From: Actinomycetes bacterium
GTDB lineage: Bacteria > Actinomycetota > Actinomycetes > S36-B12 > GCA-2699445
DNA: 37,077 bases
Reading direction: 5' to 3'
Assembly (NCBI GenBank): GCA_022600255.1
Contig: JAHZKU010000299.1
Span: forward strand, 1-37,077
In this document: positions 480 to 29,738 of the stretch, one piece after another
Layout of the letters: every line of letters starts with the position of its first letter
How positions within the stretch are numbered: position 1 is the first letter of the stretch
Position numbers and translations under genes: made by a program
Notes under the pieces: model-generated
Told to the model about the DNA's origin: nothing
Seen by the model: only the letters and a program-made list of their open reading frames with translations
Database searches by the model: none

Positions 480-530
480 ACCCGTCAACCCGTCAACCCG
501 TCAACCCGTCAACCCGTCAACCCGTCAACC
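480..530. repeat. Perfect 8-bp tandem repeat (CCCGTCAA)x6
   Basis: Six consecutive units 481-528, overlapping the dapE stop codon. Confidence 0.97.
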
Positions 531-1587
531 ATTGCATCATGATTCGTTCACACGCGACGAGATCGGAGATCGGCACGTGCTCGTTTGGCGCATGAGCCAG
601 TGTTGGATCCCCAGGACCAAAGTTCACCGCCGGAACCCCAATCTCACTAAATCGGGCGACATCGGTCCAACCAAGTTTCGGCTGTGGGGTCGCGCCGACT
701 GCGGCCACGAAGTCCGCTGCTGCAGGGCGCTGCAACCCTGGCAACGCACCGGGGGCCTCATCGACGAAGGCGACCTGATAGCCGGAGAAGACCTCCACGA
801 CGTGCTGCTTGGCCTGCGAAACTGAAAGATTCGGGGCGAAGCGGTAGTTGACCACCACTTCACAGAAGTCAGGAATGACGTTTCCGGCAATCCCCCCGGA
901 GATTCCGACGGCGTTCAGGCCTTCCCGGTATTCCAAGCCGTCAATCTGGACCCGCTGCGGCTGATAGTCCAGCAGTCGCTGCAGCACATCGATCGCATCA
1001 TGAACAGCGTTGCGTCCCATCCAACTCCGCGCACTGTGGGCACGCCGCCCAGGCACGGCAACCACTGCACGCAACGTACCTTGGCAGCCAGCCTCCACCA
1101 CCGCATTGGACGGTTCCATCAGCACCGCGAAATCGGCCGCTAGCAACTCCGGCGTGTCGCGCGCCAACCGCGCCAACCCATTCCTCTCAGCTTCGACCTC
1201 TTCGCACTCGTAGTAGACGAAAGTCACATCCCTATTGGGTTCCACCAACTGCCGGGCCAACTTCAATGAGACCGCGACACCACCCTTCATGTCACAGCTA
1301 CCCAGCCCGGATATCACTCCCTCGCTGAGCGTGTGTGGCAGGTTCCCGGCGCTGGGCACGGTGTCCAAGTGGCCGCCGATAAGCACCCGCTCGCGGCGAC
1401 CCAACTGGGTCTGGGCTACGACATTGTTGCCAACGCGAGTCACCGTAAGGCCGCTGATCTGGCGGACGGCAGCTTCTACCATGTCTGCCAGCGGCCCTTC
1501 TGAACCGGACTCGGAGGGCACGTCCACCAGGCTCGCGGTCAGTTGCACGATGTCTTGGGAGAGGTCGACGAAATCAGTTTGTTCCAC
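517..1587 (-). CDS. dapE: Succinyl-diaminopimelate desuccinylase (M20 family)
   Basis: [34 protein letters not shown] motifs; adjacent to dapD. Start set at GTG 1587 (ORF track start 1617 overlaps dapD). Confidence 0.93.
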
Positions 1588-1604
1588 CTCGATACGGTAT
1601 AACG
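1588..1604. promoter_or_regulatory. Putative bidirectional leaderless promoter for dapE and dapD
   Basis: TACGGT (1593-1598, +) lies 6 nt before ATG 1605; TACCGT (1599-1594, -) lies 6 nt before GTG 1587. Confidence 0.65.
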
Positions 1605-2543
1605 ATGAACACTGCATCTGCCGCCGCTATCCAACCTGCTTCGGGAATCGGCCTCGCCACCGTTTGTGATGGCCACATTCTTGACGTTTGGTACCCCAAC
1701 CCAACCCTCGGCGAAACAGCGGCTGATGTTCCGGACATCTCCACCGGGATTCACACCGACTCGCTGCGTCAGGTCTCGATTCAGACCATCACCACACGGA
1801 TCGCCGACCTGAAGGCCGCGCCGGTGGACACCGCAGATGTGTATCTGCGACTGCACTTGCTGAGTCACCGACTGGTCCAGCCGCATTCGATCAACCTCGA
1901 CGGCATCTTCGGGCTACTTCCAAATGTCGCGTGGACCAGCAAGGGTCCTGTTGCCTTGGAGCGTCTGGACCGGGCCCGCCTGGCTGCCCGCGCACACGGT
2001 GAGATTCTGACTGTTCTGTCGCTGGACAAGTTTCCTCGGATGGTTGACTACGTAACCCCGACGGGTGTTCGGATCGGCGATGCGGATCGCGTGCGACTCG
2101 GGGCGCACTTGGCCGCCGGGACTACCGTGATGCACGAAGGATTCGTGAACTTCAACGCGGGAACCTTGGGGACATCCATGGTCGAAGGTCGAATTTCCGC
2201 AGGCGTTGTCGTGGGCGACGGCTCGGACATTGGCGGCGGCGCGTCGATCATGGGCACGCTATCTGGCGGTGGCAAGGAAGTGATTTCAATCGGTCGTGGC
2301 TGCCTCATCGGGGCCAACGCCGGTTGCGGTATCTCCCTAGGCGACAACTGCATCATTGAAGCAGGTTGCTACGTTACGGGCGGCGCCAAAGTCGAGCTCC
2401 CCGATGGCGAAATCGTCCGGGCCCGCGACCTCTCCGGCGCATCAGACCTGCTGTTCATTCGGAACTCGGTCACCGGAGCGATCCAAGTGAAGTCCCGCAC
2501 CGGAAACTGGGGCGGCCTCAACGAAGCGTTGCACCAGAACTGA
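1605..2543 (+). CDS. dapD: Tetrahydrodipicolinate N-succinyltransferase (actinobacterial type)
   Basis: [20 protein letters not shown], hexapeptide repeats [29 protein letters not shown] end. Confidence 0.96.
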
Positions 2544-3048: not shown

Positions 3049-3702
3049 TTACGGGATTGCGTCGAACGTTTGCTTGCGCGCCTGGTACTTGCGGGTCATG
3101 ACGGGTTTGGCGACGAGGCGTACGAACCAAGGCAGGGTGTCCCAAGCTGCCGTCTGATCGTCCTGCGTGGCGCCATCACAAATCCACGGAAATACCAGTG
3201 CCGCGTCCGGGCCAGACCGGGTGTATTTGTGAAACTCATCCAGGTCAGCCGCCCTGATGTGCCGTTGCAGCACCTTGGTGGCGTCACGCTCTTCGTGCTG
3301 GCAGTGCCCAACCAAGATTGTGGTTAGTTCCACCAGGTTGGAGCGCATCTGCGCCAAGTCGACCGACCGACCAGCACCCAAGTCAGCGAACTGCACATCA
3401 AGCTTGTGGAGTTGCCCCGACAGCGCCGCGTGTTCGGCTTCCATGGCAGTCAGCACGACCTGCTCCTCCGGACGTGACGATCGTTCCTGCGCCAGCGGCC
3501 ACAAGTACTTGTCTTCACCCATGTGATGGTGCTCGAGTTGCTCCGAGAAGAAATTCCACCGCTGCACCAAACCGGTCGCATCGAGTTCGGGATCATCGGC
3601 AAGCGCCACAACTCCAGCAGTGATGCGGACCAACTCCCGCTTGAACGCTCCGTGCAGGAGTTGGTTCATCTTGAAATCAAGAGGTTTGTCGCCCACAGTC
3701 AC
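3049..3702 (-). CDS. Hemerythrin/HHE cation-binding domain protein
   Basis: HGAFKRE, HHHMGED..LWP, MEAEH, HCQHEE ligand pattern; GTG 3702 overlaps gltA stop (GTGA). Confidence 0.85.
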   Translation of the reverse strand: MTVGDKPLDFKMNQLLHGAFKRELVRITAGVVALADDPELDATGLVQRWNFFSEQLEHHHMGEDKYLWPLAQERSSRPEEQVVLTAMEAEHAALSGQLHKLDVQFADLGAGRSVDLAQMRSNLVELTTILVGHCQHEERDATKVLQRHIRAADLDEFHKYTRSGPDAALVFPWICDGATQDDQTAAWDTLPWFVRLVAKPVMTRKYQARKQTFDAIP

Positions 3703-4985
3703 CGCCCCAGAATGGGCTGATAGTTGCGCTCGGTGGCTCCCACGTACAACTGCCTCGGACGCCCAATCTTCGTTTCGGGATCGTCGATCATCTCGCGCCA
3801 CTGCGCAATCCAGCCCGGCAACCGACCGAGCGCGAACAAGACGGTGAACATGCGCGGGGGGAAGCCCAAAGCTTTATAGATCAGGCCGGTGTAGAAGTCG
3901 ACGTTGGGGTACAGGCTGCGTGACACGAAGAAATCGTCTGCCAGCGCCACCTCTTCCAGTCGCAGTGCAATGTCTAGCAGCGGATCGCGAATCTGCAGCA
4001 ACTCGAAGATCTCGTGCGCCTTTTCTTTAACGATCGCGGCGCGCGGATCGTAGTTCTTGTAGACCCGATGGCCAAAGCCCATGAGCTTAACGCCGTGATC
4101 ACGGTTCTTGACCTGACGAATGAAGGTGTTCACCCCGCCCCCGGACGCGTGGATTCCCTCCAGCATTTCCAACACGGCTTGGTTGGCACCGCCGTGCAGT
4201 GGTCCGAACAAGGCGTTGATGCCAGCGGAGATAGAGGCGAACATGTTCGCATGCGACGAGCCCACTAGGCGTACGGTTGACGTCGAACAGTTCTGCTCAT
4301 GATCGGCATGCAGGATCAGCAGCATGTCCAGGGCCTTGGCGATCGCCGGATCGACCTCGTAGTCTTCCGCCGGGACCCCGAATGACATCCGCAGATAGTT
4401 CTCGACGTAGGGGTAGGCATTGTTCGGATACAGGAACGGTTGGCCCACGGACTTCTTGTAAGCGTAAGCGGCAATGGTGGGGACCTTGGCCAGCAAACGG
4501 ATTGTGGAAATCTCCACCTGCTCAGGGTCGAGCGGGTCAAGGGAGTCTTCATAGAACGTTGACAGGGCACTGACGGCACTGGACAAGACCGGCATAGGGT
4601 GAGCGTCTCGGGGGAAACCGTCGAAGAGTCGGCGCAGATCTTCGTGCAGCATCGTGTGTCGCCCGATCCGTCCGGTGAAATCGGCCAACTCGGACTCGGT
4701 GGGCAACTCCCCGTAGATCAACAGATAAGCCACCTCTAGGTAGGTGGATTGCTGAGCCAGCTGTTCAATCGGATACCCGCGATAACGCAAGATGCCGGCG
4801 TCGCCATCGATATAGGTAATCGCGGAACGACACGATGATGTGTTCACGAATCCGGTGTCCAACGACGTCATACCGGTGGTCTTCAGCAGACTGCCAGTTT
4901 CAACCGCAGAGGCCCCCTCGGTTGCGAGAGCTACTGGCATATCCAGCGTCCCTCCGGGGTATTCCAGGGATACTTCATCGCTCAC
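3699..4985 (-). CDS. gltA: Citrate synthase (type II)
   Basis: LHADHEQNCST, GPLHGGAN, GFGHRVYK, YPNVDFY; GGAGGT RBS before GTG 4985. Confidence 0.97.
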   Translation of the reverse strand: MSDEVSLEYPGGTLDMPVALATEGASAVETGSLLKTTGMTSLDTGFVNTSSCRSAITYIDGDAGILRYRGYPIEQLAQQSTYLEVAYLLIYGELPTESELADFTGRIGRHTMLHEDLRRLFDGFPRDAHPMPVLSSAVSALSTFYEDSLDPLDPEQVEISTIRLLAKVPTIAAYAYKKSVGQPFLYPNNAYPYVENYLRMSFGVPAEDYEVDPAIAKALDMLLILHADHEQNCSTSTVRLVGSSHANMFASISAGINALFGPLHGGANQAVLEMLEGIHASGGGVNTFIRQVKNRDHGVKLMGFGHRVYKNYDPRAAIVKEKAHEIFELLQIRDPLLDIALRLEEVALADDFFVSRSLYPNVDFYTGLIYKALGFPPRMFTVLFALGRLPGWIAQWREMIDDPETKIGRPRQLYVGATERNYQPILGR

Positions 4986-5072
4986 AGCGATACCTCCACA
5001 GGGTTTTAGACTCTTCACCCAACACGTTCCACGTTACCGGCTGACCCAGTTGGCTGCGTCTTGGCGGTCGAG

Positions 5073-6263
5073 TTACGACGAATCCGATACACCCGCGGCG
5101 CGGTTAACCGGGCCGGCCGCGACGATGCGCTGCACCGCGGTCGCCTGCTCCGCCGGCGAGCCCGTAAGAGAGATTCGGACGTGCTCATGACCAGACGGGC
5201 CGTAGAAACTGCCCGGTGCCACCAGAATCCCGAGCGCCAAGAAGTGCTCGACCAACTGCATGTCAGGGGGCAGGTCACTGCCTGGAGCCCCGGCATCGGT
5301 GCGGTCCGGATTCATGTGGGGGTTCGCCGGGTCCGCGCGGACCCATAGAAAGAGCCCTTCGCTAGGCGACTGCACCACAAATGCGGCTTCAGTCAAAGCC
5401 GCAGCAAGGTCAACCCGACGTTGCTGATATTGCTGGGCGGCCAATCTCACATGATCATCGTCGTTCCAGGCGGCCGTCGCCGCCGCCTGGATGGGCTCCG
5501 GCACGATGAGGCCCGCGTTGCGCCGCTGGGACGCGAGATCGGCGATGAGTCCAGGATCGCCACTTACCATCCCCTCGCGGTAGCCCGCCATTGCGGATCG
5601 CTTTGACAGTGAGTGTACGGCGAGCAAGCCGGTCAGATCCCCGTCATTCACTTCCGGGGACAGAATCGAAGGTGCTGGGGAATCCGGTTCGGCCAACTCC
5701 AGGTAACACTCATCACTTGCCACCACACACCCCGAGTCTCGGGCCCATTGGACCACCTTGCGCAGGTGCTGCACCGGCAGCGTCTTCCCGGTGGGGTTGG
5801 ACGGCGTGTTGAGCCATAGAAGGTTTGGCCTACTGGGCCCGAATGCTAAGAGGGAGTCGCTGCGGATCACCTGAGCGCCCACGCGCAGTGCGCCCACTTC
5901 GTACGTGGGATAAGCCAGCGCAGGAATGCCCACAAGCGAAGTGTTGGACAACCGCAGCAGTCGAGGCAGGTCCGCGATCAGTTCCTTGCTGCCAATCGTG
6001 GCCAGCACTGCATCGGGTTGGATCTCCACCGATAGTCTGCGTTGCGCCCAAGCCGCATAAGCCTCCCGCAATGGCTGGGAGCCCACCGATTTGGGATAAC
6101 CCGGGGCGTTGGCCGCGACCCGGAGCGCCTCCTGCACAACGCGCGGAGTCGGTCCGGTTGGAGAACCTTGCCCAAGATCAATGGTGGGCTGCTGTCCGGC
6201 CGTGGCACGCTGCCGCAGCAGGGCGCTGAACTCGCTGATGTTCCACAGGCGCTGGGCCATCAC
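5073..6263 (-). CDS. dapC: N-succinyldiaminopimelate aminotransferase (PLP class I/II)
   Basis: IGSKELIA, AYPTYEVGA, NTPSNPTG, SDECY, HSLSKRS (PLP lysine); dap cluster context. Confidence 0.88.
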   Translation of the reverse strand: MMAQRLWNISEFSALLRQRATAGQQPTIDLGQGSPTGPTPRVVQEALRVAANAPGYPKSVGSQPLREAYAAWAQRRLSVEIQPDAVLATIGSKELIADLPRLLRLSNTSLVGIPALAYPTYEVGALRVGAQVIRSDSLLAFGPSRPNLLWLNTPSNPTGKTLPVQHLRKVVQWARDSGCVVASDECYLELAEPDSPAPSILSPEVNDGDLTGLLAVHSLSKRSAMAGYREGMVSGDPGLIADLASQRRNAGLIVPEPIQAAATAAWNDDDHVRLAAQQYQQRRVDLAAALTEAAFVVQSPSEGLFLWVRADPANPHMNPDRTDAGAPGSDLPPDMQLVEHFLALGILVAPGSFYGPSGHEHVRISLTGSPAEQATAVQRIVAAGPVNRAAGVSDSS

Positions 6264-7240
6264 GATCCTCGGCTCAGGACGAGATCGAAGTTGCCCTGCT
6301 GCGTCGCAAACTCCACCACAGCAGTCCCTGAGTCACGAACACTCAGCAACTGCTGCAACAGCTCCGAGGCTGTCAGGTCCGCGCTGGCCTCGCGGGTTGG
6401 TTCGGTGACGGCGCCCTGCTCCACGCGCAATGTATGGGCGGCACGTAGCCATTCAATTAGGGCTGCAGTGTCACAAGCCTCTAGCAGCGCGGCTGCGCGA
6501 TTCAGTTCCGCCGCAGCCTGGCGAGCGCGCAGCGCGGCCTCGCCGGCGTTGGCCGCAAGGAACTCTGCGGTTCTTTCCACGGGTGCCGCACTGATACGGT
6601 TCAAGTCCCGAAAAGACCCGGCGGCAAGTCGCACCGCCAGTAGATTGGGGCCAGGGGCAACCACCACATTGCCCAGTGCCCCGGCAAGCAGATGGGGCAG
6701 GTGGGAGATCTCCGCCACGGATTGATCGTGCGTTTGCGCACTCACGGGAATCGGCTGGCCACCTAACGCTGTGATGATCTCGAGCACGCTGGCCAAGGCC
6801 GCAGCATCAGTCTGCGTTGTCACGACCACTGGCCAGGGCGCTTCTTGGAACAAGTCAGCGCGTCCGGCCGCGAACCCCGCTTCTTCTGATCCGGCCATTG
6901 GGTGCGTCGCAACAAACGGAAAAGTCGGGTCAACCGCGAGCCAGGCGCCGACAATTCCAGACTTCACTGAGCCAGCATCCATCACGACAGGTCGAGACCC
7001 GCTTGCCATCAGTTCCTGCAGCAGTACAGTGTTGCTTTGGGTCGGGGCCGCCAAGATCACGACGTCACAGGTGGCCAGTCCCGCTATCGATTCCACCGGC
7101 CGTACCCCGAGGTCAGCGGCCGCGCGTCGAGCAGCAGCATTGGGGTCGAACGCCGTCACGCTTGCGCTCGGTGCTAGGCAGCGTGCGATCGAAGATCCGA
7201 TCAGACCAAGGCCGGCGACCCCGACCACCGATTCACGCAT
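6260..7240 (-). CDS. tyrA: Prephenate/arogenate dehydrogenase (TyrA family)
   Basis: GLGLIGSS Rossmann motif, DAGSVK, HPMAGSE, HD..VAEISHLPH, GSFRD. Confidence 0.9.
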   Translation of the reverse strand: MRESVVGVAGLGLIGSSIARCLAPSASVTAFDPNAAARRAAADLGVRPVESIAGLATCDVVILAAPTQSNTVLLQELMASGSRPVVMDAGSVKSGIVGAWLAVDPTFPFVATHPMAGSEEAGFAAGRADLFQEAPWPVVVTTQTDAAALASVLEIITALGGQPIPVSAQTHDQSVAEISHLPHLLAGALGNVVVAPGPNLLAVRLAAGSFRDLNRISAAPVERTAEFLAANAGEAALRARQAAAELNRAAALLEACDTAALIEWLRAAHTLRVEQGAVTEPTREASADLTASELLQQLLSVRDSGTAVVEFATQQGNFDLVLSRGS

Positions 7241-7243
7241 GAC

Positions 7244-8188
7244 TCAGGTCGCGAGCGACTCGGGGGTCAGCAAGGTGGCAATCCAGTCCGGCAATGCGTC
7301 AGCGGTCACCGATCCAGGCGGGGCTGACTCGCCGCCACGACGATCACCTCCGCCATTGAGCGGGTAGGAACCGAGGATCTTCAGTTCCGACGGCAATTCA
7401 GCGGCAGCCTGCAGGGCTTCCTGGATGCGCTCGTCGGCGATGTGTCCGCGCGCGGTTAGGAGAAACGAGTACTCCCCAGCCCGGGTCTTCAGGGGACGGG
7501 AACTGATCGATGTGAGTGCGATGTCCCGAGCGGCGAAGCATTGCAGGATCTCGACTAACACTCCCGTCCGGTCCCCGATCGGGGTGACCACGATCGACGT
7601 GCGATCGTGCCCAGTGGGCTCGGACACGCGTCGGCTGAGCAGCGCCATCCGCGTTGACACACCGCTGTGATCCTCAGCCACCCCGCGCAGAATTGCCAAC
7701 TGTTCCTGCTTTGCGGCAATCGCTGTGGTCAAGGCAGCGTGCTGGCTGTTGTCGGCCCCAGCCACAGCAGCGCTGGCCGCTGCATTAGATGCCACTAGTG
7801 TCACCGTTGCGTCGAGTGACTCCACAAACCGCCGACACTGCGAAAGCGCCGCGGATGTCGTGATGAGCTGTGTGACCTCACTCAGCCGACTGCCTGCCTG
7901 GCCAGCGGCCACGTAGTTGATCGGCACGATAATTTCTTCGTTGATAAAACACATGGAGGAACGAAAGATCAGCTCATCGATCGTGCTGGAGACGTCACCC
8001 TCGACCGAGGTTTCTAAGGGCACGACGCCGGCAGCGGCCTCCCCTGATTCCACGCTGAAGATGACATCGGCCACTGATTCGCGGGGTTCGACGCTGCCCG
8101 CCCAAGGTTTACCCAGCAGGTCCACAGCGCCGTGCGTGAACGTGCCAGGCGGCCCAAGGTAGGTGAGTCGCGGCTTAGGATCCGTCAC
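7244..8188 (-). CDS. pheA: Prephenate dehydratase-family protein with ACT domain, divergent active-site motifs
   Basis: YLGPPGTFT, PLETSVEG, SQCR, TRM, SSRP, GHI, LGSYP. Confidence 0.82.
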   Translation of the reverse strand: MTDPKPRLTYLGPPGTFTHGAVDLLGKPWAGSVEPRESVADVIFSVESGEAAAGVVPLETSVEGDVSSTIDELIFRSSMCFINEEIIVPINYVAAGQAGSRLSEVTQLITTSAALSQCRRFVESLDATVTLVASNAAASAAVAGADNSQHAALTTAIAAKQEQLAILRGVAEDHSGVSTRMALLSRRVSEPTGHDRTSIVVTPIGDRTGVLVEILQCFAARDIALTSISSRPLKTRAGEYSFLLTARGHIADERIQEALQAAAELPSELKILGSYPLNGGGDRRGGESAPPGSVTADALPDWIATLLTPESLAT

Positions 8189-8517
8189 TCGTCGTGTTCC
8201 TGAGGTGGCAAGGCCGTGATGAACGGTACGTCCTTCTTGAATGGCCCGTGCTTGGCCGCGCCGCCGAGATCCGATTCCGGTATGCCATCGAAGAAGTCGA
8301 CGTTGGCCGCCGTGTACTGTTCTTGATCCTCGGGCACATCATCTTCGTAGTAGATCGCTTCCACCGGGCACACGGGCTCGCAGGCCCCACAATCGACACA
8401 CTCGTCCGGGTGGATGTACAGCATCCGTTCACCCTCGTAGATACAGTCGACCGGGCATTCATCGATGCATGCCTTGTCCTTAAGATCTACACATGGTTGT
8501 GTGATGACGTAAGTCAT
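8185..8517 (-). CDS. fdxA: 7Fe ([3Fe-4S][4Fe-4S]) ferredoxin
   Basis: MTYVITQPCVDLKDKACIDECPVDCIY...CVDCGACEPVCP; AAGGAGG RBS. Confidence 0.96.
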   Translation of the reverse strand: MTYVITQPCVDLKDKACIDECPVDCIYEGERMLYIHPDECVDCGACEPVCPVEAIYYEDDVPEDQEQYTAANVDFFDGIPESDLGGAAKHGPFKKDVPFITALPPQEHDE

Positions 8518-8866
8518 CAGGTGCCTCCTTGCGAGCAGCAGATGATCTGGAGATAGGCCCAGACCAGATTCGTTGGCCAGAAATCGATTTGACTGTTAGT
8601 ACGCCACGTTCGGCGATAAGAATCGCCTTCGGTGCTCAGGACACGAGACCGGTCACGGATTTCAGACCCATCGCGGATTCGTACCCTTACTACCCCACTA
8701 GAGTATCCGAACTCGCGTACGGATCGGGTCAGCTAGTCCGATGCGCCCATTGGCATCCGCACGGAACCAGTCAGCATACGCACGGAAACCGTTCAGTCAC
8801 GACCGGTGACCTGGGAGCCGGTCAAGATCCAAACACTGGCTGCATTTCCCTTGTTACCCTTGGCAG

Positions 8867-10183
8867 ATGTATCGGGCACTTCTCAGATTCGGCGTGGCCA
8901 TGTGTGTGGCTGGGGTCACCCTGACGACCGCACAGCAGGCGACCGCGGCAGGTGGCACCATGCCACAGCGAGCCACGACCGCGCCCGCCCAAGCAGCCCA
9001 GCTTCCCGCAAGCGCTGGAGCGCAGGTGACCGCACGGGTCGATGGCAAGAAGGGCAAGATAGGCTCAGCGGACTTCGGCATTCATTCGTTCCAAGGCACC
9101 CCCGGTGTTGCCGCCGGCTCTGTCCGACTCGCGTGCGCACCGACCTGGGCCGCGGTGAATCCTGCCCCCGGGGAGTACGACTGGGAGCAGATGGACTACT
9201 GGGTAGATCGGGTCGAGAACTACGGCTACTCCGACATTCTGTTCGCATTCTGCTCCACCCCGGAGTGGGCGGCCAAGCCCGTCGCGAGGCCGGATGATCG
9301 ATACTTGCCGGGCAGCGTCGGCCAACCCCGGAAGATGTCCTACTGGCGCGACTTTCTGGAACAAGTTGTGCAGCGGTACCGCGGCCGAATCACCTCATAC
9401 GAAACCTGGAACGAAGCGACCTCAAGGTTCCTGTATCAGGGCTCACCCAAGGCAATGGCCAAGATGACGCGGGTCCTATACGAAGTCGTACAGCAGTACG
9501 ACTCGTCGGCCCAGGTCTTGGCCGCCAACGTACAGGCGAGTCGGCAGATCAATAGTCGAGACTGGTTATTCACGTTCTGGCCGCCGTACCTGAAGAAATT
9601 GAAGCGCATGAAATGGCCAGTGGACGCGCTGTCTATCCACTCCTACGCCGATATCCGCAACTACCCCAAGTACCGCAAAAAGGGCCAGACCTTACGACCA
9701 GATCTCATTTCCGGGGCCCTGAAAATCCTGCGGCGTTATGACCCGCCAAAGCGCCTTCAGATTTGGGATACCGAAACCAACAACTTGGAGAAGTTCAATG
9801 CTCGAGGCCAGCGAGCCGTCGTCGCGCGCACCTACCTGGACTCCTTTCGCTTAGGCATTGACCGTACCTACTGGTACATGTGGACGACCAAGTTCGATCC
9901 CTGGATGGGAACACAAATGATGGCGGGCACAGCTTCGGTGGCCGCATATGACCAGGTGCGAGCTTGGACAAAGGGCAAGAAGCTCCGCAACTGCCAAACT
10001 GAGCGCCGGCTGACCACCTGCCGCATCTTGCCAGGCAAGGCCATCGTGGCCTGGTCCGAGCGGGGGGAGTCCAAACTGAAGTTGGGGGGTAAGCGCCAGG
10101 TTTGTGATTTGGCCTCCGATTGTCGCAAGGTCAAGCGTAAGCTCAAAGTGCGCGTGGATCCGGTCTGGATCAACCGCCGCTAG
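8867..10183 (+). CDS. Secreted clan GH-A glycoside hydrolase (GH39/GH5-like)
   Basis: Signal peptide; YETWNE acid/base and IWDTE nucleophile motifs; SIHSY; YWYMW. Confidence 0.8.
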   Translation: MYRALLRFGVAMCVAGVTLTTAQQATAAGGTMPQRATTAPAQAAQLPASAGAQVTARVDGKKGKIGSADFGIHSFQGTPGVAAGSVRLACAPTWAAVNPAPGEYDWEQMDYWVDRVENYGYSDILFAFCSTPEWAAKPVARPDDRYLPGSVGQPRKMSYWRDFLEQVVQRYRGRITSYETWNEATSRFLYQGSPKAMAKMTRVLYEVVQQYDSSAQVLAANVQASRQINSRDWLFTFWPPYLKKLKRMKWPVDALSIHSYADIRNYPKYRKKGQTLRPDLISGALKILRRYDPPKRLQIWDTETNNLEKFNARGQRAVVARTYLDSFRLGIDRTYWYMWTTKFDPWMGTQMMAGTASVAAYDQVRAWTKGKKLRNCQTERRLTTCRILPGKAIVAWSERGESKLKLGGKRQVCDLASDCRKVKRKLKVRVDPVWINRR

Positions 10184-10325: not shown

Positions 10326-11327
10326 TTGCTGTTGTTTCCCACCGGAAGGGCCCCCTTCAACGCCAGTCCCGCTGATGTCGGGCGGCGGGTGCGCGTGGAC
10401 TTCAAGCCAACCAGTTTTGGGGCAGACCCCCAGACGCTAGAAGGGGTACTGTTCCGCTGGAGTGGGGGCGTGAAGGATGGAATCCTGCGCCTGCGTGACC
10501 GGAACGGAGTCGATACCGGAATCCGTAGCAGCGAGATCACCGAGATCCGGGTCATGCCACCAGAGGTGAGCGCCTACGACATGGAACGACTGGCCCAACA
10601 GGGGTGGCCGTCGATCACGACCGAAGCGCTCGGAGATTGGGATTTGCGTTACGCGTGCGGTTACGGGGATCGCGCCAATAGCGTGCGGGTGGCGGGGAAT
10701 CCCACCAACAAGTCACTCAAAGCCACGCTCAAGGCTGTCGAGGACTGGTACGAGGAACGTGGCTCATCGGGGCTCCTGCAGATTCCGATTCCGTTCGACG
10801 AAGCACCATTCGAAGCGCTCGGCTGGACGGCGCAGCGAAAGGGTCGCCTGATGGTCAACTCGGTGGCCCGCTTTCTGAATGCCACCGCACCAGCGCGGGA
10901 ACGCATCGATCTAGACATCACGGTTGAGTCTGTGCCCGACCAGCAGTGGCTAGATCTCGTCAGCGGCTATACGCCACAGCGCGCTGAAGAGTTTGACTAC
11001 ATCATGGATTCGGTACGACCGGCCGCGTTCATCTACTGCCGCAACCTGGACGGTGAACTCCTCGGGATCGGGCGCGCTACCTTGCAGGACACCTGGTGCG
11101 GCGCGACCACGATCGACACTGTGCCGCAATCTCGACGGCGTGGGATCGCAACAGCCATCAGCGCGGAAATGGCCATTTGGGCCGCCGAGCACGGCGCACG
11201 CGACTGGTATCTACAGGTCTTTCACGACAACGCCGCTGCCCGATCTTTCTTTGAGAACCTCGGCTTCACGACCCATCATCAGTACGAGTACCGCCGCAAG
11301 GACGTCGACATCGCACCGACTCCCTAG
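10326..11327 (+). CDS. GNAT family acetyltransferase with N-terminal beta-rich domain
   Basis: RRRGIA acetyl-CoA motif, YLQVFHDNAAA..FFENLGF, RANS; AGGAG RBS before TTG. Confidence 0.85.
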   Translation: MLLFPTGRAPFNASPADVGRRVRVDFKPTSFGADPQTLEGVLFRWSGGVKDGILRLRDRNGVDTGIRSSEITEIRVMPPEVSAYDMERLAQQGWPSITTEALGDWDLRYACGYGDRANSVRVAGNPTNKSLKATLKAVEDWYEERGSSGLLQIPIPFDEAPFEALGWTAQRKGRLMVNSVARFLNATAPARERIDLDITVESVPDQQWLDLVSGYTPQRAEEFDYIMDSVRPAAFIYCRNLDGELLGIGRATLQDTWCGATTIDTVPQSRRRGIATAISAEMAIWAAEHGARDWYLQVFHDNAAARSFFENLGFTTHHQYEYRRKDVDIAPTP

Positions 11328-11396
11328 CCAACCAAACCGCAGGGAGCGTAGCCCTACCTCGGCCAGCAGTGCCAGCCAACGCCGACCGGCGGACTG

Positions 11397-11936
11397 CTAG
11401 GGCTGCGACCCGGTGGCCAGTTCCCGATATTGTGTGCGCCAGTATAGGAGCGGCTGAGTACCAGACCCCCGGTCTACCGACGTGACCCGACCGATGACAA
11501 TGTCGTGATCACCGGCGCGCAGTTGCTGCTGGGTTTTACACTCTAGGGTCGCCAGGGTTTGGTCCAACACTGCGGTACCGGACGGGGTGCGGTGATGCGG
11601 CACTGAGTCCAACTGCCCAGCCAACTGCCGCCCCGAAGTGGCAAACCACTCCGCATGAAGCTTGGCCTCCGCCGACAAGACCGAAACGGCCCAGGTCGGC
11701 GCACTAGAGATCGCTGCATGAAAGCGGGCGCTGCGATTGACACACACAAGGATGAGAGGGGGATCCAGGGATACCGAGGAGACCGCCGATGCGGTCATGA
11801 CGTGATCCATCCCGTTGGCCACACAGCTGACAACCGTAACGCCGCTGGCAAACGATCCCATCGCATGCCGAAACAGTTCCTCGGCTTCTATATCAGGCGC
11901 CTTTTGACCCTGCGTGGCTTCGGCTTCGTCAGGCAT
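11397..11936 (-). CDS. Flavin reductase-like protein (HpaC/RutF family)
   Basis: FRHAMGSFASGVTVV, SVSLDPP, AGDHDIVIG; start ATG 11936 overlaps upstream stop. Confidence 0.9.
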   Translation of the reverse strand: MPDEAEATQGQKAPDIEAEELFRHAMGSFASGVTVVSCVANGMDHVMTASAVSSVSLDPPLILVCVNRSARFHAAISSAPTWAVSVLSAEAKLHAEWFATSGRQLAGQLDSVPHHRTPSGTAVLDQTLATLECKTQQQLRAGDHDIVIGRVTSVDRGSGTQPLLYWRTQYRELATGSQP

Positions 11937-12387
11937 TCGAGTTGCCTCGAATGGCCGCGTTGGTTTCTTCTTTGCTCGGGCCCCGCGCACCTAGTGCCGC
12001 GGGCAGGCTGACGAATGTTGAGCCGAGTACCACGCCGCCAAAGAAGTAGAACACCTGAACCGCACCGTCTGCGATGACTTGGTCGCCACTAGGCAGCGGT
12101 AGCGCCAGCACGATTGAGGCGATCAACCAGCCCAAGAAGAAGACTGAGCCTGGCTTGCGACTGCCGTAGGAAACAGTGATTGCCCGAATACTCACCAGGA
12201 GGGTGAGCATAACTAGGATCGCCCAAACCGGGATCGTGACTGGACCAACCTCAAAGGTCGCGGCCTGCAGGAATGCCCCAATCATTCCCAATACCAAGCC
12301 GGCCAGGAGCGCCCATCCGAATGTCCACCCGGTAATTGGGGTGATCGAACCCGTCCGATCGGGTGAACCTACTCCGTCTGCGCTCAT
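11929..12387 (-). CDS. Four-TM membrane protein (DUF6113-like) downstream of mshB
   Basis: Four hydrophobic segments, PSGD loop; GAGGAAGGA RBS. Confidence 0.75.
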   Translation of the reverse strand: MSADGVGSPDRTGSITPITGWTFGWALLAGLVLGMIGAFLQAATFEVGPVTIPVWAILVMLTLLVSIRAITVSYGSRKPGSVFFLGWLIASIVLALPLPSGDQVIADGAVQVFYFFGGVVLGSTFVSLPAALGARGPSKEETNAAIRGNSNA

Positions 12388-12430
12388 GTTTCCTTCCTCG
12401 CTACCGATGACTCTAGGGCACTCAATGAAC

Positions 12431-12472
12431 CGGGGCCGATCCGTGAGCCGGATCGGCCCCGTATTTTCTTTT
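12431..12472 (+). terminator. Intrinsic terminator-like hairpin
   Basis: Perfect 13-bp stem CGGGGCCGATCCG/CGGATCGGCCCCG, 5-nt loop, then TATTTTCTTTT on + strand. Confidence 0.75.
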
Positions 12473-12480
12473 CCGGCTTG

Positions 12481-13362
12481 TCAGCCGAACAGCCCGATCT
12501 CACGACCGTCCTGGTCCAGTGGGCCACTCGGGACGCCCTTCACGAGCCGGAAGTATTCTTCGCTGAAGATTGGGGAACCGATGTTGTTCGACAACGCGAA
12601 GAACCCCTCCTCCAAGTTGACCTGGCTCGCATGCGCCCGGAAAGCTGCGACCTTCTGGGGCAGTTGGGCCGAAACATCCACCGCCGTGGTCACCGCAGAA
12701 TCCGGGATAGCGAACGGGAGATCGTCTGGATCTCGGGCGGCAAATGCGGATTGATCGCCACGCTCACGTAGCGCCAGGATTCCGGCGCGGATCGCACTGG
12801 CGGGAAAACAGATCCAGTAGATCTTCGCGATATCCCAGGCTGGCCCGAGGTCGGGCCGATACGAGGCAACAGCGGCGAGTTGAGAGGCATACATCGCGAC
12901 GCGATGCGCCTGGATGTGATCGGGGTGCCCGTACCCGCCAAAGTCGTCGTACGTCACCAGAACGATTGGTTGAGTCTGGCGAATAATCTCTACCAGGATC
13001 GTCGCTGCTTCGCGCAGGTCCGCCTGCCAAAACGACTCCGGGACAGCGTTCGACGGCTCGCCCATCATGCCAGAGTCCCGGTAGTGGCCCGCTCCGCCTA
13101 GGAACCGACTGTCTTGCACGCCTAGCGCGGCGACCGACCCGGCGAGTTCGGTGATCCGGTGAGGTCCGAGGCCATCAGTCTGGTCGGCGGCCAGATGAGC
13201 AATTTCTGGCAACAGGATTTCGCCCTCTTCCCCCAAGGTGCAGGTCACCAATGTGACCTGGCCACCCGCAGCGGTGTGTTTGGCAATCACCCCACCGGTA
13301 CCAAGGACCTCATCATCGGGGTGGGCGTGGACAACCAACATGCGATCAGTTTCTTGCACCAT
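12481..13362 (-). CDS. mshB: GlcNAc-Ins deacetylase (mycothiol biosynthesis)
   Basis: VHAHPDDE, CTLGEEGE, YRDSGM, GGYGHPDHIQAH, FALSNN; start set at ATG 13362. Confidence 0.92.
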   Translation of the reverse strand: MVQETDRMLVVHAHPDDEVLGTGGVIAKHTAAGGQVTLVTCTLGEEGEILLPEIAHLAADQTDGLGPHRITELAGSVAALGVQDSRFLGGAGHYRDSGMMGEPSNAVPESFWQADLREAATILVEIIRQTQPIVLVTYDDFGGYGHPDHIQAHRVAMYASQLAAVASYRPDLGPAWDIAKIYWICFPASAIRAGILALRERGDQSAFAARDPDDLPFAIPDSAVTTAVDVSAQLPQKVAAFRAHASQVNLEEGFFALSNNIGSPIFSEEYFRLVKGVPSGPLDQDGREIGLFG

Positions 13363-13546
13363 GTCTACCGACAATACGCGCGTCTGCAGGCTGCCGTTGC
13401 CGATGGGAGCTGCCGCCCAAGGCCAATCCGCAACCACGCGGCGCTCATCCCCGATAGTGGACCGGCCCATGCGGGGGCAACCGGCAGGTGCGGCCGGATC
13501 AGTCCCGGGTCTTGGACGGGAGGTGCCGGCACGTCACACTTGGACA

Positions 13547-25228: not shown

Positions 25229-26245
25229 TCAGAGAACGTCCGAGAAGGTCTTAACGGGCATCTTCAACTCTTCCAGCAGTTCGATGTCAGCCGACGGTTC
25301 CCGGCCCAGAGTGGTGAGGTAGTTGCCGACAATCACGGCGTTGATACCGCCCATCAAGCCTTCCTTCGTGCCGATGTCCCCCAGGGTGACTTCACGACCG
25401 CCCGCGTAGCGCAGGATGGTCTTTGGCAGGGCGAGTCGGAAAGCGCCGATCGCTCGCAAGGCGTCCCCTGAGCTCAAAGTTGGTACGTCTGCGAACGGCG
25501 TGCCTGGCCGCGGATCCAGGAAATTCATGGGAACTTCGTGGGGGCTCAGTTCAGCCAACTGTGCCGCGAACTCGGCCCGTTGCTCAACGGTTTCGCCCAT
25601 CCCCAAGATGCCACCGCAGCAGACCTCCATGCCCACCTTGGCCACGAGTTGCAGCGTCTCAACCCGCTCCTCCCAAGTGTGCGTCGTGACGACCTGGGGA
25701 AAGTAGGAGCGAGCAGTCTCCAAGTTGTGGTTGTAGCGGTGCACGCCCATGTCGACCAACTCGTCCGCCTGTGCTGGTGTGAGGATCCCCAGGCTGCAGG
25801 CAATATCGATCTCGACCTCAGCGTTGATGGCCTCGATCCCTTCGCGTACCTGTTTCATCAGACGCTTGTCTGGCCCACGAACGGCCGCAACAATGCAGAA
25901 CTCCGTGGCACCGGTCTTAGCGGTCTCTTTCGCCGCTTTGACCAGTTCGGGAATGTCCAACCGCGCCACCGTGACCGGGGCCGGGAAACGCGCGGACTGG
26001 GAACAGAAATGGCAGTCTTCTGGACATCCGCCGGTCTTGAACGAAATGATGCCTTCGACCTCGACTTCTGGGCCACACCATTTCATCCGAACGTCATGCG
26101 CCAGTTGCAGCAAATCACCGATCCGGTCGTCCGGCAGTTGCAATACCTTAAGGATCTCCGACTCAGGCAGCGGTTCGCCGCGCTCGAGCACACTCACCCG
26201 GGCGCGCGCCAGCACATCGTCAGTCAGATCAACGGTTTCACTCAT
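25229..26245 (-). CDS. bioB: Biotin synthase
   Basis: CPEDCHFC radical SAM motif, [24 protein letters not shown]. Confidence 0.97.
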
Positions 26246-26973
26246 GAGTTCTCCTGTCGCTTTGCATATGATCCCATTGACTCCCCTGACCTCACACGAC
26301 CCCCCACAGATTCGGACAACGCGGCTCGCGCGGCTGCGAGGAACGCGCCACGATCAGCCGACCCCAGCCCCTCGGGAAGCACGCCTAGCAAGGGCCGCCG
26401 GGCCAGATTGGGTAAGTCCTGCAGGTTTTCCTGCGCAGCGATGTCGGGTGCGCTGGGCCAGGAACCGACGATTAGGCCGGCGATGGGAATTCCACGGTTG
26501 CGGGCAACCTCCAGCGTTAGCGCCGTGTGGTTCAACGTCCCGAGGCCAGCGGCGACAACCACGATGGTCTCCCCGCCCAACAGCGCCGCGAGATCGGAGA
26601 ACGTTTCTCCTGCAGCGTTGATTCGCACCAGCAGTCCGCCAGCACCTTCCACCAACACCAGATCGAAGTCGCCCGAAAGCCGCTGGATCGCCGTGACCAA
26701 CTCGGTAGCCGTGACTTCGGCCAGACCACTCCGGCGGGCGGCCGCCTCTGGACTCAGCGGATCCGGGTAGCGGACGAATTCGAAGATGTCGGTGACTCCG
26801 GCTAGGCGTGTTACATCGGCCAAGTCGCCCGGTTCGCCCACCCTAAGGCCAGTTTGAATCGGCTTCACCACGGCCACCCGTTGCCCAGCGTCGGCCGCCA
26901 CCGCGGCCAGGGCGGCCACCGCGATCGTCTTGCCCACGTCGGTGCCCGTCCCAGTCACCAGAGTGACGTTCAC
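26242..26973 (-). CDS. bioD: Dethiobiotin synthetase
   Basis: [27 protein letters not shown]; 4-nt overlaps on both sides. Confidence 0.95.
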
Positions 26974-28193
26974 GACTGTCGCACTTCTGCGACGGGGTCG
27001 CTCAAATCCACGCTGGACTCCACACCGAGCGGGTTGTCCCGGTACGTTGCGGGCGCTGGGGGGCCGGCGCGCAGCAACTCCTGCACTTGTGCCAACTCGT
27101 TGGCCGTGAGACCAGCCTTGGCGGTGATTCGGAGCCGGGAGATGCCATCGGGCACCGACGGTGGCCGGAACACACCTACGTCGACGCCGGCCGTTCGCCA
27201 ACGCGCTTGTTCCCGGACCGCCACCTCGGGGTCTCCGATCTGCAAAGACAGCACCGCACCGCTCGGGGCGACGCTGGTCCAGCCTGCCGCCACCGCGGCC
27301 CTAAACAACTGGGTCGTATGGCTCCACAAGCGCTTGGGCAGGTCTGGCTCGCGGTTCAGTAACCGCAGCACCGCGGCGCTAGCCGCGACCGACGCTGGCG
27401 GCAACGCGGTGTCAAAAATGAAGGTACGCGCGGTGTCCACCAGATGATCGATCACGACCTGCTCACCCAACACTGCACCACCGGACGCTGCCAGCGATTT
27501 TGACAGCGTAGCGGTGATCAGTACCCCGGGGGCCCCAGCCAGCCCTGCAGCCGCGACCGAACCCGCTCCGCTGTCACCGACCACCCCCAGACTGTGGGCT
27601 TCGTCAACCAGCATCGCCGCACCGTGCTGTTCACAAACCCGGTGCAGCGCGGCCAAGTCGGCGGCATCACCGTCCACGCTGAAGATGGACTCAGTGACCA
27701 CCAGCGCCCGCGGCTGTGTCCGGGTCGCCAGAACCTCCGCCACTGCTGACACCGAACGGTGCGGCACCACTGCAACCTCGGCACGCGACAAGCGAGCCCC
27801 ATCAATGATCGAGGCGTGGTTGTAGGCGTCTGAGACGATCAGCGTGTCCGCGTCGCACAGTGCGGTCATGACACCAAGGTTGGCGGCATAGCCAGTGCTG
27901 AACACTAGGGCCGCTGCGGCGCCGGTGTGCCGGGCCAAGTCATGCTCTAAGTCAGCGTGCGCCTGGGTCGACCCCGCGACCAAGCGAGAGGCCTTCGACC
28001 CGGTTCCCCAGCGTGCCACTGCATCGGCTGTGGCTGCCATGATGCGCGGGTCTTGGCTCAGGGAGAGGTAATCGTTGCTAGCCAGGTCAATCAGCTGCTG
28101 ATCGTGCTTCCTAGCGCGCAGCGTCCGACGCAGCCCAGCCCGGTCACGGTAGCGGGCGTGATCTTCTAGATGTTGCCAGCGGGGATCGGTCAT
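26970..28193 (-). CDS. bioF: 8-amino-7-oxononanoate synthase
   Basis: ASNDYL, GYAAN, NHASIIDG, FSVDGD, DEAH, TLSKS; ATG overlaps bioA stop. Confidence 0.95.
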   Translation of the reverse strand: MTDPRWQHLEDHARYRDRAGLRRTLRARKHDQQLIDLASNDYLSLSQDPRIMAATADAVARWGTGSKASRLVAGSTQAHADLEHDLARHTGAAAALVFSTGYAANLGVMTALCDADTLIVSDAYNHASIIDGARLSRAEVAVVPHRSVSAVAEVLATRTQPRALVVTESIFSVDGDAADLAALHRVCEQHGAAMLVDEAHSLGVVGDSGAGSVAAAGLAGAPGVLITATLSKSLAASGGAVLGEQVVIDHLVDTARTFIFDTALPPASVAASAAVLRLLNREPDLPKRLWSHTTQLFRAAVAAGWTSVAPSGAVLSLQIGDPEVAVREQARWRTAGVDVGVFRPPSVPDGISRLRITAKAGLTANELAQVQELLRAGPPAPATYRDNPLGVESSVDLSDPVAEVRQS

Positions 28194-29572
28194 CGAACCA
28201 CGGCGTCCACGGCGGCTGTGACAGTCGCGGTCAAGGTGTCGACCTCGGCGGGTTGGATCGCAAGTGGAGGCATGAGGATCACCACATCCCCCAGCGGCCG
28301 CACCCAAACCCCGTGGCGGCGCGCCCACTGGCAGACGTCGAAGCCAGTGCGCTCCGTCACCGGGTGCACCTCAATGCCGGTCATGGTGCCAATGCGGCGA
28401 ATCTCCATGACCCCAGGATGATCGGCGAGCGGCGCTAGGTTGCGAGCCAGCTGATCGGCCACGTCCTGCGCGTTTGCCAGTGTGTTGTCCGTGGCCATCA
28501 AATCCAGATTGGCCAACGCGGCGGCGGCCGCTGGCGGATTGGCCGTATAGGAGTGGCCGTGGAAGAACGTTCGTGCCGACGCCGGGCTGCCCAAGAAGGC
28601 CTCGTAGATTTCCTCGGTGGCCAGCACCGCCGAAAGGGGCAACATCCCGGCGGTGACGCCCTTGCCGAGCGTCAGCAAATCTGGCGAAACACCCGCGTGA
28701 TCCACTGCCCACATCTTTGCGGTCCGGCCAATGCCCGTGGCTACCTCGTCCGCAATCATGTAGGCGCCAGTGTCATCGCAGATTGCGCGGATGCCCTGCA
28801 CGAAGCTCGCGTCATGGGTGAGCATTCCGCCGGCACCCTGCACCATCGGTTCGATGATGATGGCGCAGACCTGATCCACGTGAGCCGCCATCAGATCACG
28901 CAACTCTTGCAGCACCTCGGCCGCCCGCGCCTGCGCAGATTGCTCCGCTGACCGCACCCCCGGACTACCAACTTGGCGCGTTTCCAGCATGATCGAGCGA
29001 TAGGTCTGGTGAAACAGTTCAATGCCACCAACACTGACGGCTCCCAGTGTGTCGCCGTGATAGCCCTCGGCGACGTGAACGATCAAGGGCCGGACCCCAC
29101 CGTTTTGTGCGTGCGCTTGGTAGGCCATTTTGATCGCTGCTTCCACAGCACTACTGCCATCACCGGCGTAGAAGACCCGATTCAGACCGCTTGGCGCGAG
29201 TTCCGCAAGCCGCTGCGCCAACTCAATCCCAGGCTCGTGTGTCAGGCCTAAGAACGTGGTGTGATCCAACCGCTGCAGTTGGGAGGTGACGGCCTCCACA
29301 ATCTTGGGGTGGGCGTGCCCGTGAACGTTGACCCAGAGCGATGAGACACCGTCCAAATATCGGTTACCGTCGGTGTCCCAGAAGTACATGCCTTCGGCGC
29401 GGTCCACAACCAACGGATCGTCCCCGAGCCAACGGCTGTGTTGGGTGAAGGGATGCCACACGTGAGCCGCGTCTTTGGCCACTAACGCTTGGGTACGGGC
29501 CCTCCTATTGGCTGTGTCCGTCACATCTGTCACATCACCACGCGCTGCGTTGGTGGTCCGCATGCCAGTCAT
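28190..29572 (-). CDS. bioA: 7,8-diaminononanoate aminotransferase
   Basis: WHPFTQ, SSLWVNVHGH, YHGDT, ADEVATG, LGKG, HGHSYTANP; GAGAGAGGG RBS. Confidence 0.94.
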   Translation of the reverse strand: MTGMRTTNAARGDVTDVTDTANRRARTQALVAKDAAHVWHPFTQHSRWLGDDPLVVDRAEGMYFWDTDGNRYLDGVSSLWVNVHGHAHPKIVEAVTSQLQRLDHTTFLGLTHEPGIELAQRLAELAPSGLNRVFYAGDGSSAVEAAIKMAYQAHAQNGGVRPLIVHVAEGYHGDTLGAVSVGGIELFHQTYRSIMLETRQVGSPGVRSAEQSAQARAAEVLQELRDLMAAHVDQVCAIIIEPMVQGAGGMLTHDASFVQGIRAICDDTGAYMIADEVATGIGRTAKMWAVDHAGVSPDLLTLGKGVTAGMLPLSAVLATEEIYEAFLGSPASARTFFHGHSYTANPPAAAAALANLDLMATDNTLANAQDVADQLARNLAPLADHPGVMEIRRIGTMTGIEVHPVTERTGFDVCQWARRHGVWVRPLGDVVILMPPLAIQPAEVDTLTATVTAAVDAVVR

Positions 29573-29738
29573 CGCGCCACACCCTCTCTCTGATCGATAG
29601 TGCCATCTTGCCCACCCCACACCCAATTCCCGCAGCCCGGCGTCGCACCGATCCGGCGCGGCTCAGGTTCCCTCCGACACGGCCGTGGCGGAAACTCGGG
29701 CAGCCACACCCGGTGGCTTTGTGCCAAGATTCTGGTCC

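Follow-up and report, generated by a model that had tools for sequence, protein, structure and literature searches.

In the 37,077-nt stretch of DNA from an Actinomycetes bacterium analysed here (contig JAHZKU010000299.1, hereafter the window), four minus-strand open reading frames (ORFs) succeed each other without real spacers, as seen both in the ORF listing and in the sequence itself. They are fdxA, a gene of the prephenate dehydratase (PDT) family, a gene of the TyrA family and dapC. The two genes in the middle, a pheA-like gene and tyrA, separate two genes that directly adjoin each other in the other loci of class Actinomycetes that were compared. The block is composed as follows, from its upstream to its downstream end.

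8524..8530, minus strand: Shine-Dalgarno sequence AAGGAGG, read from the sequence, 6 nt ahead of the fdxA ATG.
8185..8517, minus strand: fdxA, first gene of the block, encoding an actinobacterial ferredoxin of 110 amino acids (aa) with Fer4 domains (NF045480 FdxA_Actino, 178.4 bits).
7244..8188, minus strand: pheA-like gene, first inserted gene, encoding a 314-aa protein with a PDT domain (PF00800, 111 bits) and a C-terminal ACT domain.
6260..7240, minus strand: gene of a TyrA-family dehydrogenase (prephenate/arogenate), second inserted gene, 326 aa (PF02153, 76.4 bits; PF20463, 52 bits).
5073..6263, minus strand: dapC, last gene of the block, encoding an actinobacterial succinyldiaminopimelate aminotransferase (TIGR03539) with 396 aa if GTG 6263 is the start and 395 aa if ATG 6260 is.

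The fdxA and PDT genes overlap by 4 nt (GTGA) and the PDT and TyrA genes are separated by a 3-nt spacer (TGA-gtc-ATG), both as described in the original prediction from which this analysis started. The 4-nt overlap that it gave for tyrA and dapC depends on the start codon of dapC: at the sequence GTGATG the overlap is 4 nt with the GTG start at 6263, but 1 nt with the better supported ATG start at 6260. We consider ATG 6260 more likely because GAGGA lies 5 nt upstream of it and because the database copy of the window protein (P0241) has 395 aa. The AAGGAGG motif in front of fdxA (8530-8524) is the only strong ribosome-binding site preceding the block. Genes of other operons in the window often overlap as well (bioD and bioB by 4 nt, two opp permease genes by 8 nt); thus the tight packing of the four genes is ordinary, and it is their content that stands out. 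An Rfam scan of the whole window gave zero matches, and hence no leader or riboswitch ahead of fdxA.

To place the block among its relatives, 17 loci obtained in a genome scan with the window DapC as query (best identity 51%) were searched by tblastn with eleven window proteins (E up to 1e-5). By their titles, five of these loci belong to class Actinomycetes, namely Mycobacterium (L001), Aeromicrobium (L002 and L010), a metagenome-assembled genome (MAG) of Actinomycetales (L003) and Nakamurella (L004). In all five the fdxA match ends 66-112 nt ahead of the DapC match, in agreement with the statement of the original prediction that the two genes usually adjoin in actinobacteria, and the window fdxA is 66-73% identical to these dapC-adjoining genes. 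Within 10 kb of fdxA-dapC, neither pheA nor tyrA is present in any of the five loci, and no PDT or TyrA match was obtained in any of the 17. The proposed insertion of a pheA-like gene and tyrA into a conserved pair therefore stands. Around fdxA-dapC, the five loci carry mshB (four loci), a gene of N-acetylglutamate synthase (NAGS; three), dapD (two), gltA (one) and dapE (one). NAGS and mshB matches flank fdxA in L002, L003 and L010, gltA follows dapC in L003, and lysine-pathway neighbours of the dapD/dapE type lie beside dapC in L004 and L010. Since fdxA adjoins dapC without PDT or TyrA in the compared Actinomycetes, the window is, judged by its gene order, the usual mshB-NAGS-fdxA-dapC-gltA/dapD-dapE block with two inserted genes. 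Six further loci (L005-L009 and L011; 34-35% DapC identity), five of Acidimicrobiia and one titled 'uncultured Actinomycetes', contain dapC with dapE and/or dapD and no fdxA match, so that, of the loci examined, only those of class Actinomycetes seem to have the fdxA-dapC pairing. The remaining six loci are proteobacterial.

The arrangement recurs in uncultured relatives of the window organism. Linkage of genes in these relatives was judged by an equal size of the longest contig and a shared source across three protein searches. The window TyrA has 33 close matches (P0002-P0034, 44-70% identity), after which the score drops from 226 to at most 138 bits, and the dehydratase has 51 (P0121-P0171, 48-91% identity). 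Eleven of the 33 TyrA matches share contig size and source with a close dehydratase match (32888, 4156, 3275, 51245, 4770, 5905, 2241, 12303, 14123, 106226 and 9705 nt) and seven with a top-ranked DapC match (32888, 4770, 5905, 51245, 77577, 3275 and 4156 nt); six are linked with both. Four further dehydratase-DapC pairs have the same source (3447, 11456, 4847 and 9607 nt). On the shared contig of 3275 nt the three genes must be contiguous, because at full length they need 3051 nt and leave no room for anything else. In a FastTree phylogeny of 120 DapC sequences, the 12 contig-linked DapCs, including that of the window, fall into one clade of 21 of the 120 tips with a support of 0.96. Names on clade members are few and read 'Candidatus Nanopelagicales bacterium' (MAGs) or 'Actinomycetales bacterium'. 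The original prediction had named commonness of the arrangement in relatives as a finding that would speak against it; the arrangement does recur, as far as contig links go, but only inside this one uncultured clade. At third codon positions the G+C content (GC3) of the two inserted genes is 0.71 and 0.66, inside the range of their neighbours (0.66-0.76). Taken together, recurrence on the contigs of relatives, membership in one DapC clade and the GC3 values point to one old insertion that was inherited within a single clade of uncultured actinobacteria. A recent horizontal transfer of the insert was considered but is not supported, as GC3 gives no sign of a recent foreign origin.

The outer genes of the block are well-defined family members. 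FdxA passes the curated equivalog cut-off of 125 bits over profile positions 1-106 of 107, and DapC passes that of TIGR03539 DapC_actino (374.9 versus 355.65 bits). The hisC model reaches 92.5 bits on the window aminotransferase against a cut-off of 276.55, short of an assignment to the HisH/HisC type. DapC is positioned after fdxA and near dapD/dapE as in the five class-Actinomycetes loci, the two inserted genes aside, and by score and position we regard it as an ordinary DapC_actino member. The TIGR03539 model matches in two stretches because of a Pro/Asp-rich insertion of 20 residues (314-333); this insertion and a longer C-terminus (386-396) each correspond to a gap in over 90% of 91 relatives. 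In P0242, a DapC relative with 77% identity, another insertion occupies the position of the first. The contig-linked DapCs share eight positions with group-specific substitutions, which may be purely phylogenetic. The best solved relative is 2x5d (E 8e-36), and no close structure was found.

The second inserted gene encodes both domains of TyrA proteins, PDH_N (PF02153) and the dimerisation domain PDH_C (PF20463), each above its cut-off, and scores far below the NCBIfam equivalog cut-offs (141.8 versus 414 bits for the best model, also 140.2 versus 290). Residues H113, H183, R211, D212 and R215 are conserved throughout the clade (33 of 33 members) and align with the solved TyrAs 3dzb, 3b1f, 3ktd and 2f1k; we take the HPMAG histidine, the second histidine and the arginine of GxFRDxxR to be catalytic or binding residues. 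All 33 also carry Asp at the nucleotide discriminator (D32), and only three positions strongly separate them from other actinobacterial TyrAs. Asp at this position is described as a reliable indicator of NAD+ use by Song et al. 2005 (PMC1173090; this and the other sources named below by PMC number, as well as GapMind, are cited for the accessible part of their text). The window TyrA has its core domains, the discriminator Asp and a C-terminal extension (its Pfam core ends at residue 266) in common with the actinobacterial NAD-type TyrAa of the Streptomyces group (PMC1173090), but it stays far below all NCBIfam equivalogs and reaches at most 138 bits outside its own clade. Characterised actinobacterial TyrAs are specific for arogenate (TyrAa; PMC1173090), and the arogenate specificity of TyrA from Corynebacterium glutamicum is called 'a trait shared among Actinobacteria' (PMC11971909). 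The rule that infers TyrA specificity from an acidic residue 222 was, in the accessible description, set up for TyrA clades I and II, and the enzymes of Bifidobacterium, Synechocystis and Aquifex belong to clade III with mixed specificities; we discarded this rule as inapplicable, as it covers clades I and II rather than clade III. The authors of GapMind likewise describe prephenate and arogenate dehydrogenase activities as hard to tell apart.

The first inserted gene encodes a PDT domain (residues 9-187) followed by an ACT domain (residues 206-263), the latter with 25.4 bits just below the cut-off of 27 bits. The protein aligns end to end with its best solved relative, the prephenate dehydratase 3mwb (E 5e-38), and its best NCBIfam equivalog match, PRK11898, is below the cut-off (199.2 versus 219 bits). 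With the canonical prephenate dehydratases 3mwb, 2qmw and 2qmx it shares the PDT and ACT domains and the Thr and Arg of the TRF motif (T179 in 50 of 51 clade members, R180 in 51 of 51). In contrast to them, F181 is replaced by Met (TRM) in 51 of 51 clade members, whereas 59 of 60 outgroup sequences have Phe; SSRP stands in place of ESRP in 49 of 51, whereas 55 of 60 outgroup sequences have the ESRP-type Glu; and GVLV is found in the window protein where a motif of the type GALV, GALM or GSLH is expected. Further clade features are the change of Asn to Thr in the ENS motif (N60T, 35 of 51) and two charge swaps, E19H and R84E. The C-terminal tail of the clade contains a conserved PPG (residues 290-292) that is absent from the mostly acidimicrobial outgroup. 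An exhaustive search of 1.84 billion representatives returned 219 proteins with E values of at most 1e-30. The clade forms a single representative at 50% identity (458 bits) and is isolated in sequence space, the next representatives scoring 232 and then 184 bits. Among the 150 best representatives, TRF occurs in 140 and TRM in 4, ESRP in 105 and SSRP in 7. A search of the ESM Atlas with the dehydratase yielded prephenate dehydratase clusters of Actinomycetota and nothing else, and the NCBI labels on clade members are limited to 'prephenate dehydratase domain-containing protein' and 'hypothetical protein'.

That the neighbouring aminotransferase might act on prephenate has precedent. Succinyldiaminopimelate aminotransferase had been said in the original prediction to be a reported prephenate aminotransferase of actinobacteria, and the literature agrees: Rv1178 of Mycobacterium tuberculosis 'may synthesize L-arogenate' on the basis of prephenate aminotransferase activity in vitro, with Graindorge et al. 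2014 given as the source (PMC10977890); in C. glutamicum, deletion of dapC (cg1253) leads to tyrosine bradytrophy and DapC is counted among the aminotransferases making arogenate (PMC11971909); and dapC, ilvE and aroT are listed as aminotransferases of the pathway (PMC12125101). The accessible parts of PMC9309667 and GapMind contain nothing on DapC in this role. Prephenate transamination by DapC is known from this earlier work, and the idea is not new in itself. A published description of a pheA-tyrA-dapC cluster, or a paper connecting Nanopelagicales with arogenate, was not found in the literature accessible to us, which does not include most subscription papers. We know of no sequence determinant for prephenate transamination in the DapC class.

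With moderate confidence we favor the explanation that housekeeping pheA and tyrA genes were relocated into the fdxA-dapC operon, where they are co-expressed with an arogenate-making aminotransferase. In the ancestor of one uncultured Actinomycetes clade, both genes would have moved between fdxA and dapC, giving one translationally coupled and presumably co-transcribed operon fdxA-pheA-tyrA-dapC inside a conserved neighbourhood of lysine and tricarboxylic acid (TCA) cycle genes. DapC would retain its role in the lysine pathway and, as reported for other actinobacterial DapCs, would also convert prephenate to L-arogenate; TyrA of the NAD type would form tyrosine from arogenate by oxidative decarboxylation, and the dehydratase would convert prephenate to phenylpyruvate, toward phenylalanine. 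Such an operon would co-express three enzymes, each of which competes for prephenate or acts downstream of it, with pheA and tyrA as putatively the only copies of the cell and with fdxA as a bystander that supplies the promoter and the ribosome-binding site. The insertion itself is real, lineage-specific but recurrent, and its functional interpretation matches known biology.

The proposed dual role in lysine and arogenate synthesis is taken over by analogy from Rv1178 and cg1253, which belong to the same family DapC_actino and occupy the same place after fdxA. Their dapC genes are not beside pheA or tyrA, whereas in the window the three genes form one putative operon, and the window DapC differs from them by its 20-residue insertion and its longer C-terminus. 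A second comparison is the supraoperon aroQ-pheA > hisHb > tyrA > aroF of Proteobacteria (PMC1173090), in which an aminotransferase gene likewise lies on one strand with pheA and tyrA and the logic, co-expression of post-prephenate enzymes, is the same. In contrast to it, the window aminotransferase is of the DapC and not of the HisH/HisC class, its setting is one of ferredoxin and lysine genes, and aro genes, including aroQ and aroF, were absent from the 31 window ORFs scanned.

Several points weigh against this relocation hypothesis. The substrate choice of TyrA is not readable from its sequence, and the dehydratase, with its altered hallmark motifs, is perhaps no typical PheA; neither inserted protein reaches any NCBIfam equivalog cut-off. 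Further copies of pheA and tyrA may exist outside the window. Conserved adjacency is no proof of a functional link at this locus, because fdxA-dapC itself is conserved without known metabolic logic. A scan for promoters and terminators was uninformative, at chance level (one promoter-like site versus 0.7 expected, three terminator-like sites versus 2.2 expected). Synteny in the relatives rests on matching contig sizes and not on DNA, and such matches also arise by chance: TyrA contig sizes of 2860 and 3344 nt coincide with those of unrelated outgroup dehydratases from different sources, and dehydratase and DapC sizes of 1772 and 3059 nt coincide across different sources. A more distant dehydratase subgroup (P0162-P0171, 48-54% identity) showed no contig links.

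The most serious competing explanation is a neutral operon fusion. A chance rearrangement during genome compaction would have placed pheA-tyrA between fdxA and dapC, inheritance alone would have kept it there, its place beside dapC would carry no function, and other aminotransferases would transaminate prephenate. We hold this to be possible, though rather unlikely. It fits the conservation of fdxA-dapC as a pair despite the lack of a known shared pathway and the frequency of overlapping junctions in the window (bio and opp genes). Since all contig-linked relatives belong to one DapC clade, a single event followed by vertical descent explains the recurrence without selection. C. glutamicum moreover uses several aminotransferases, so that its dapC deletion causes bradytrophy and not auxotrophy (PMC11971909). 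Chance, however, would have had to select as neighbour the one aminotransferase class that was shown to make arogenate in actinobacteria, and the cluster has been kept down to about 50% TyrA identity. In addition, a linkage of aminotransferase, tyrA and pheA recurs elsewhere, for example in the hisHb-tyrA supraoperon (PMC1173090).

A more far-reaching alternative is a complete arogenate route, in which the remodelled dehydratase is an arogenate dehydratase and DapC feeds both the phenylalanine and the tyrosine branch. The dehydratase changes described above affect motifs that are conserved elsewhere and are clade-wide (TRM, SSRP, N60T, E19H, R84E), the clade is isolated and TRM is rare among its relatives, and PheA of M. 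tuberculosis is predicted to act on arogenate too (PMC10977890). According to PMC13217925, TRF is critical for catalysis, GALV and ESRP are regulatory, and plant arogenate dehydratases keep all three; the motif changes of the clade are therefore not a known arogenate signature, and they could equally affect feedback regulation alone. To our knowledge, the characterised PheA enzymes of other actinobacteria are prephenate dehydratases. The same is stated for pheA of C. glutamicum (PMC12125101), and nothing was found to support the place on the arogenate branch that the dehydratase had been given at the outset. From the original view that the operon joins prephenate transamination to both arogenate branches, the link between DapC and arogenate remains as known biology, and the dehydratase branch is unsupported. 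We consider the complete route improbable. The same low probability applies to its fullest form, a complete arogenate pathway in a single operon with DapC as sole prephenate aminotransferase, an NAD-dependent arogenate dehydrogenase (TyrA) and, in the remodelled dehydratase (E19H, N60T, R84E, F181M, E229S), an arogenate dehydratase of a kind new to bacteria and under altered feedback control. If this were true, the synthesis of lysine, phenylalanine and tyrosine would hang on one aminotransferase and one promoter.

It is very doubtful that the inserted genes are paralogues acting on a prephenate-like intermediate of another product in a variant or specialised pathway, with canonical pheA and tyrA elsewhere: their scores below every NCBIfam equivalog cut-off, the vague NCBI names ('domain-containing', 'hypothetical') and the altered dehydratase motifs would agree with this, but the genes lie in a core-metabolism context without biosynthetic-cluster genes, TyrA retains its key residues and differs strongly from other actinobacterial TyrAs at only three positions, and, as a weak point, no canonical dehydratase with a Nanopelagicales name is among the 120 PDT matches listed, few of which carry names.

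The linkage of pheA and tyrA with dapC supports, independently and from genome context, a dual role of DapC in lysine and arogenate synthesis, which so far is based on assays in vitro and on the phenotype of a single deletion. It represents an actinobacterial counterpart of the proteobacterial aminotransferase-tyrA-pheA linkage with a different class of aminotransferase. The analysis also defines discrete subfamilies of the dehydratase (TRM/SSRP) and of TyrA that standard models do not name; automated metabolic reconstructions of these abundant uncultured actinobacteria could for this reason wrongly call phenylalanine or tyrosine auxotrophy. For Nanopelagicus, phenylalanine auxotrophy has been predicted in one paper; we do not claim a connection to the enzymes of this clade.

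The surroundings of the block are those of core metabolism only (dapE, dapD, gltA, mshB, bio genes, ispH and ychF), and biosynthetic-cluster genes were absent from the window genes identified. The mycothiol gene mshB and the matches to the actinobacterial DapC, DapD and FdxA models assign the window to Actinomycetota. Its G+C content is about 0.62, well above the 40-51% of cultivated Nanopelagicales. A tRNA scan of the window found none. On one side the block is bordered by dapE, dapD, a hemerythrin-domain ORF and gltA, on the other by a 438-aa ORF without family, a homologue of CG3035-type NAGS, a flavin reductase gene and mshB.

517-1617, minus strand: dapE (TIGR01900, 492 bits).
1605-2543, plus strand: dapD (TIGR03535, 470 bits).
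3699..5018, minus strand: gltA, citrate synthase, downstream synteny anchor, 54 nt after dapC (NF004126, 678.6 bits).
8867-10183, plus strand: 438-aa ORF whose N-terminus resembles a signal peptide; outside all Pfam and NCBIfam families, with a weak Glyco_hydro_42 match (E 0.0065) as the only hint.
10326-11327, plus strand: NAGS homologue of CG3035 type, upstream anchor, below the model cut-off.
Within 10326..13470, between the NAGS homologue and mshB: flavin reductase gene, upstream anchor.
12481-13470, minus strand: mshB, upstream anchor.

The NAGS homologue scores 141 bits, well short of the 280 bits set as cut-off for the CG3035 model, and was assigned by family resemblance and conserved position only. 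The 438-aa ORF sits between fdxA and this divergent NAGS gene. Because the divergent NAGS and fdxA directly adjoin each other in L002, L003 and L010, at a distance of 243-437 nt, the 438-aa ORF is a second insertion in the same block. The hemerythrin-domain ORF (PF01814; 3049-3801, minus strand) follows gltA on the same strand, and the two ORFs as listed share about 100 nt; the hemerythrin ORF probably begins further downstream than listed. Finally, a complete biotin operon bioA-bioF-bioD-bioB with overlapping ORFs extends over 25229-29626 (minus strand), in which the long N-terminal extensions of the listed bioD and bioF ORFs are probably due to starts that were called too early.

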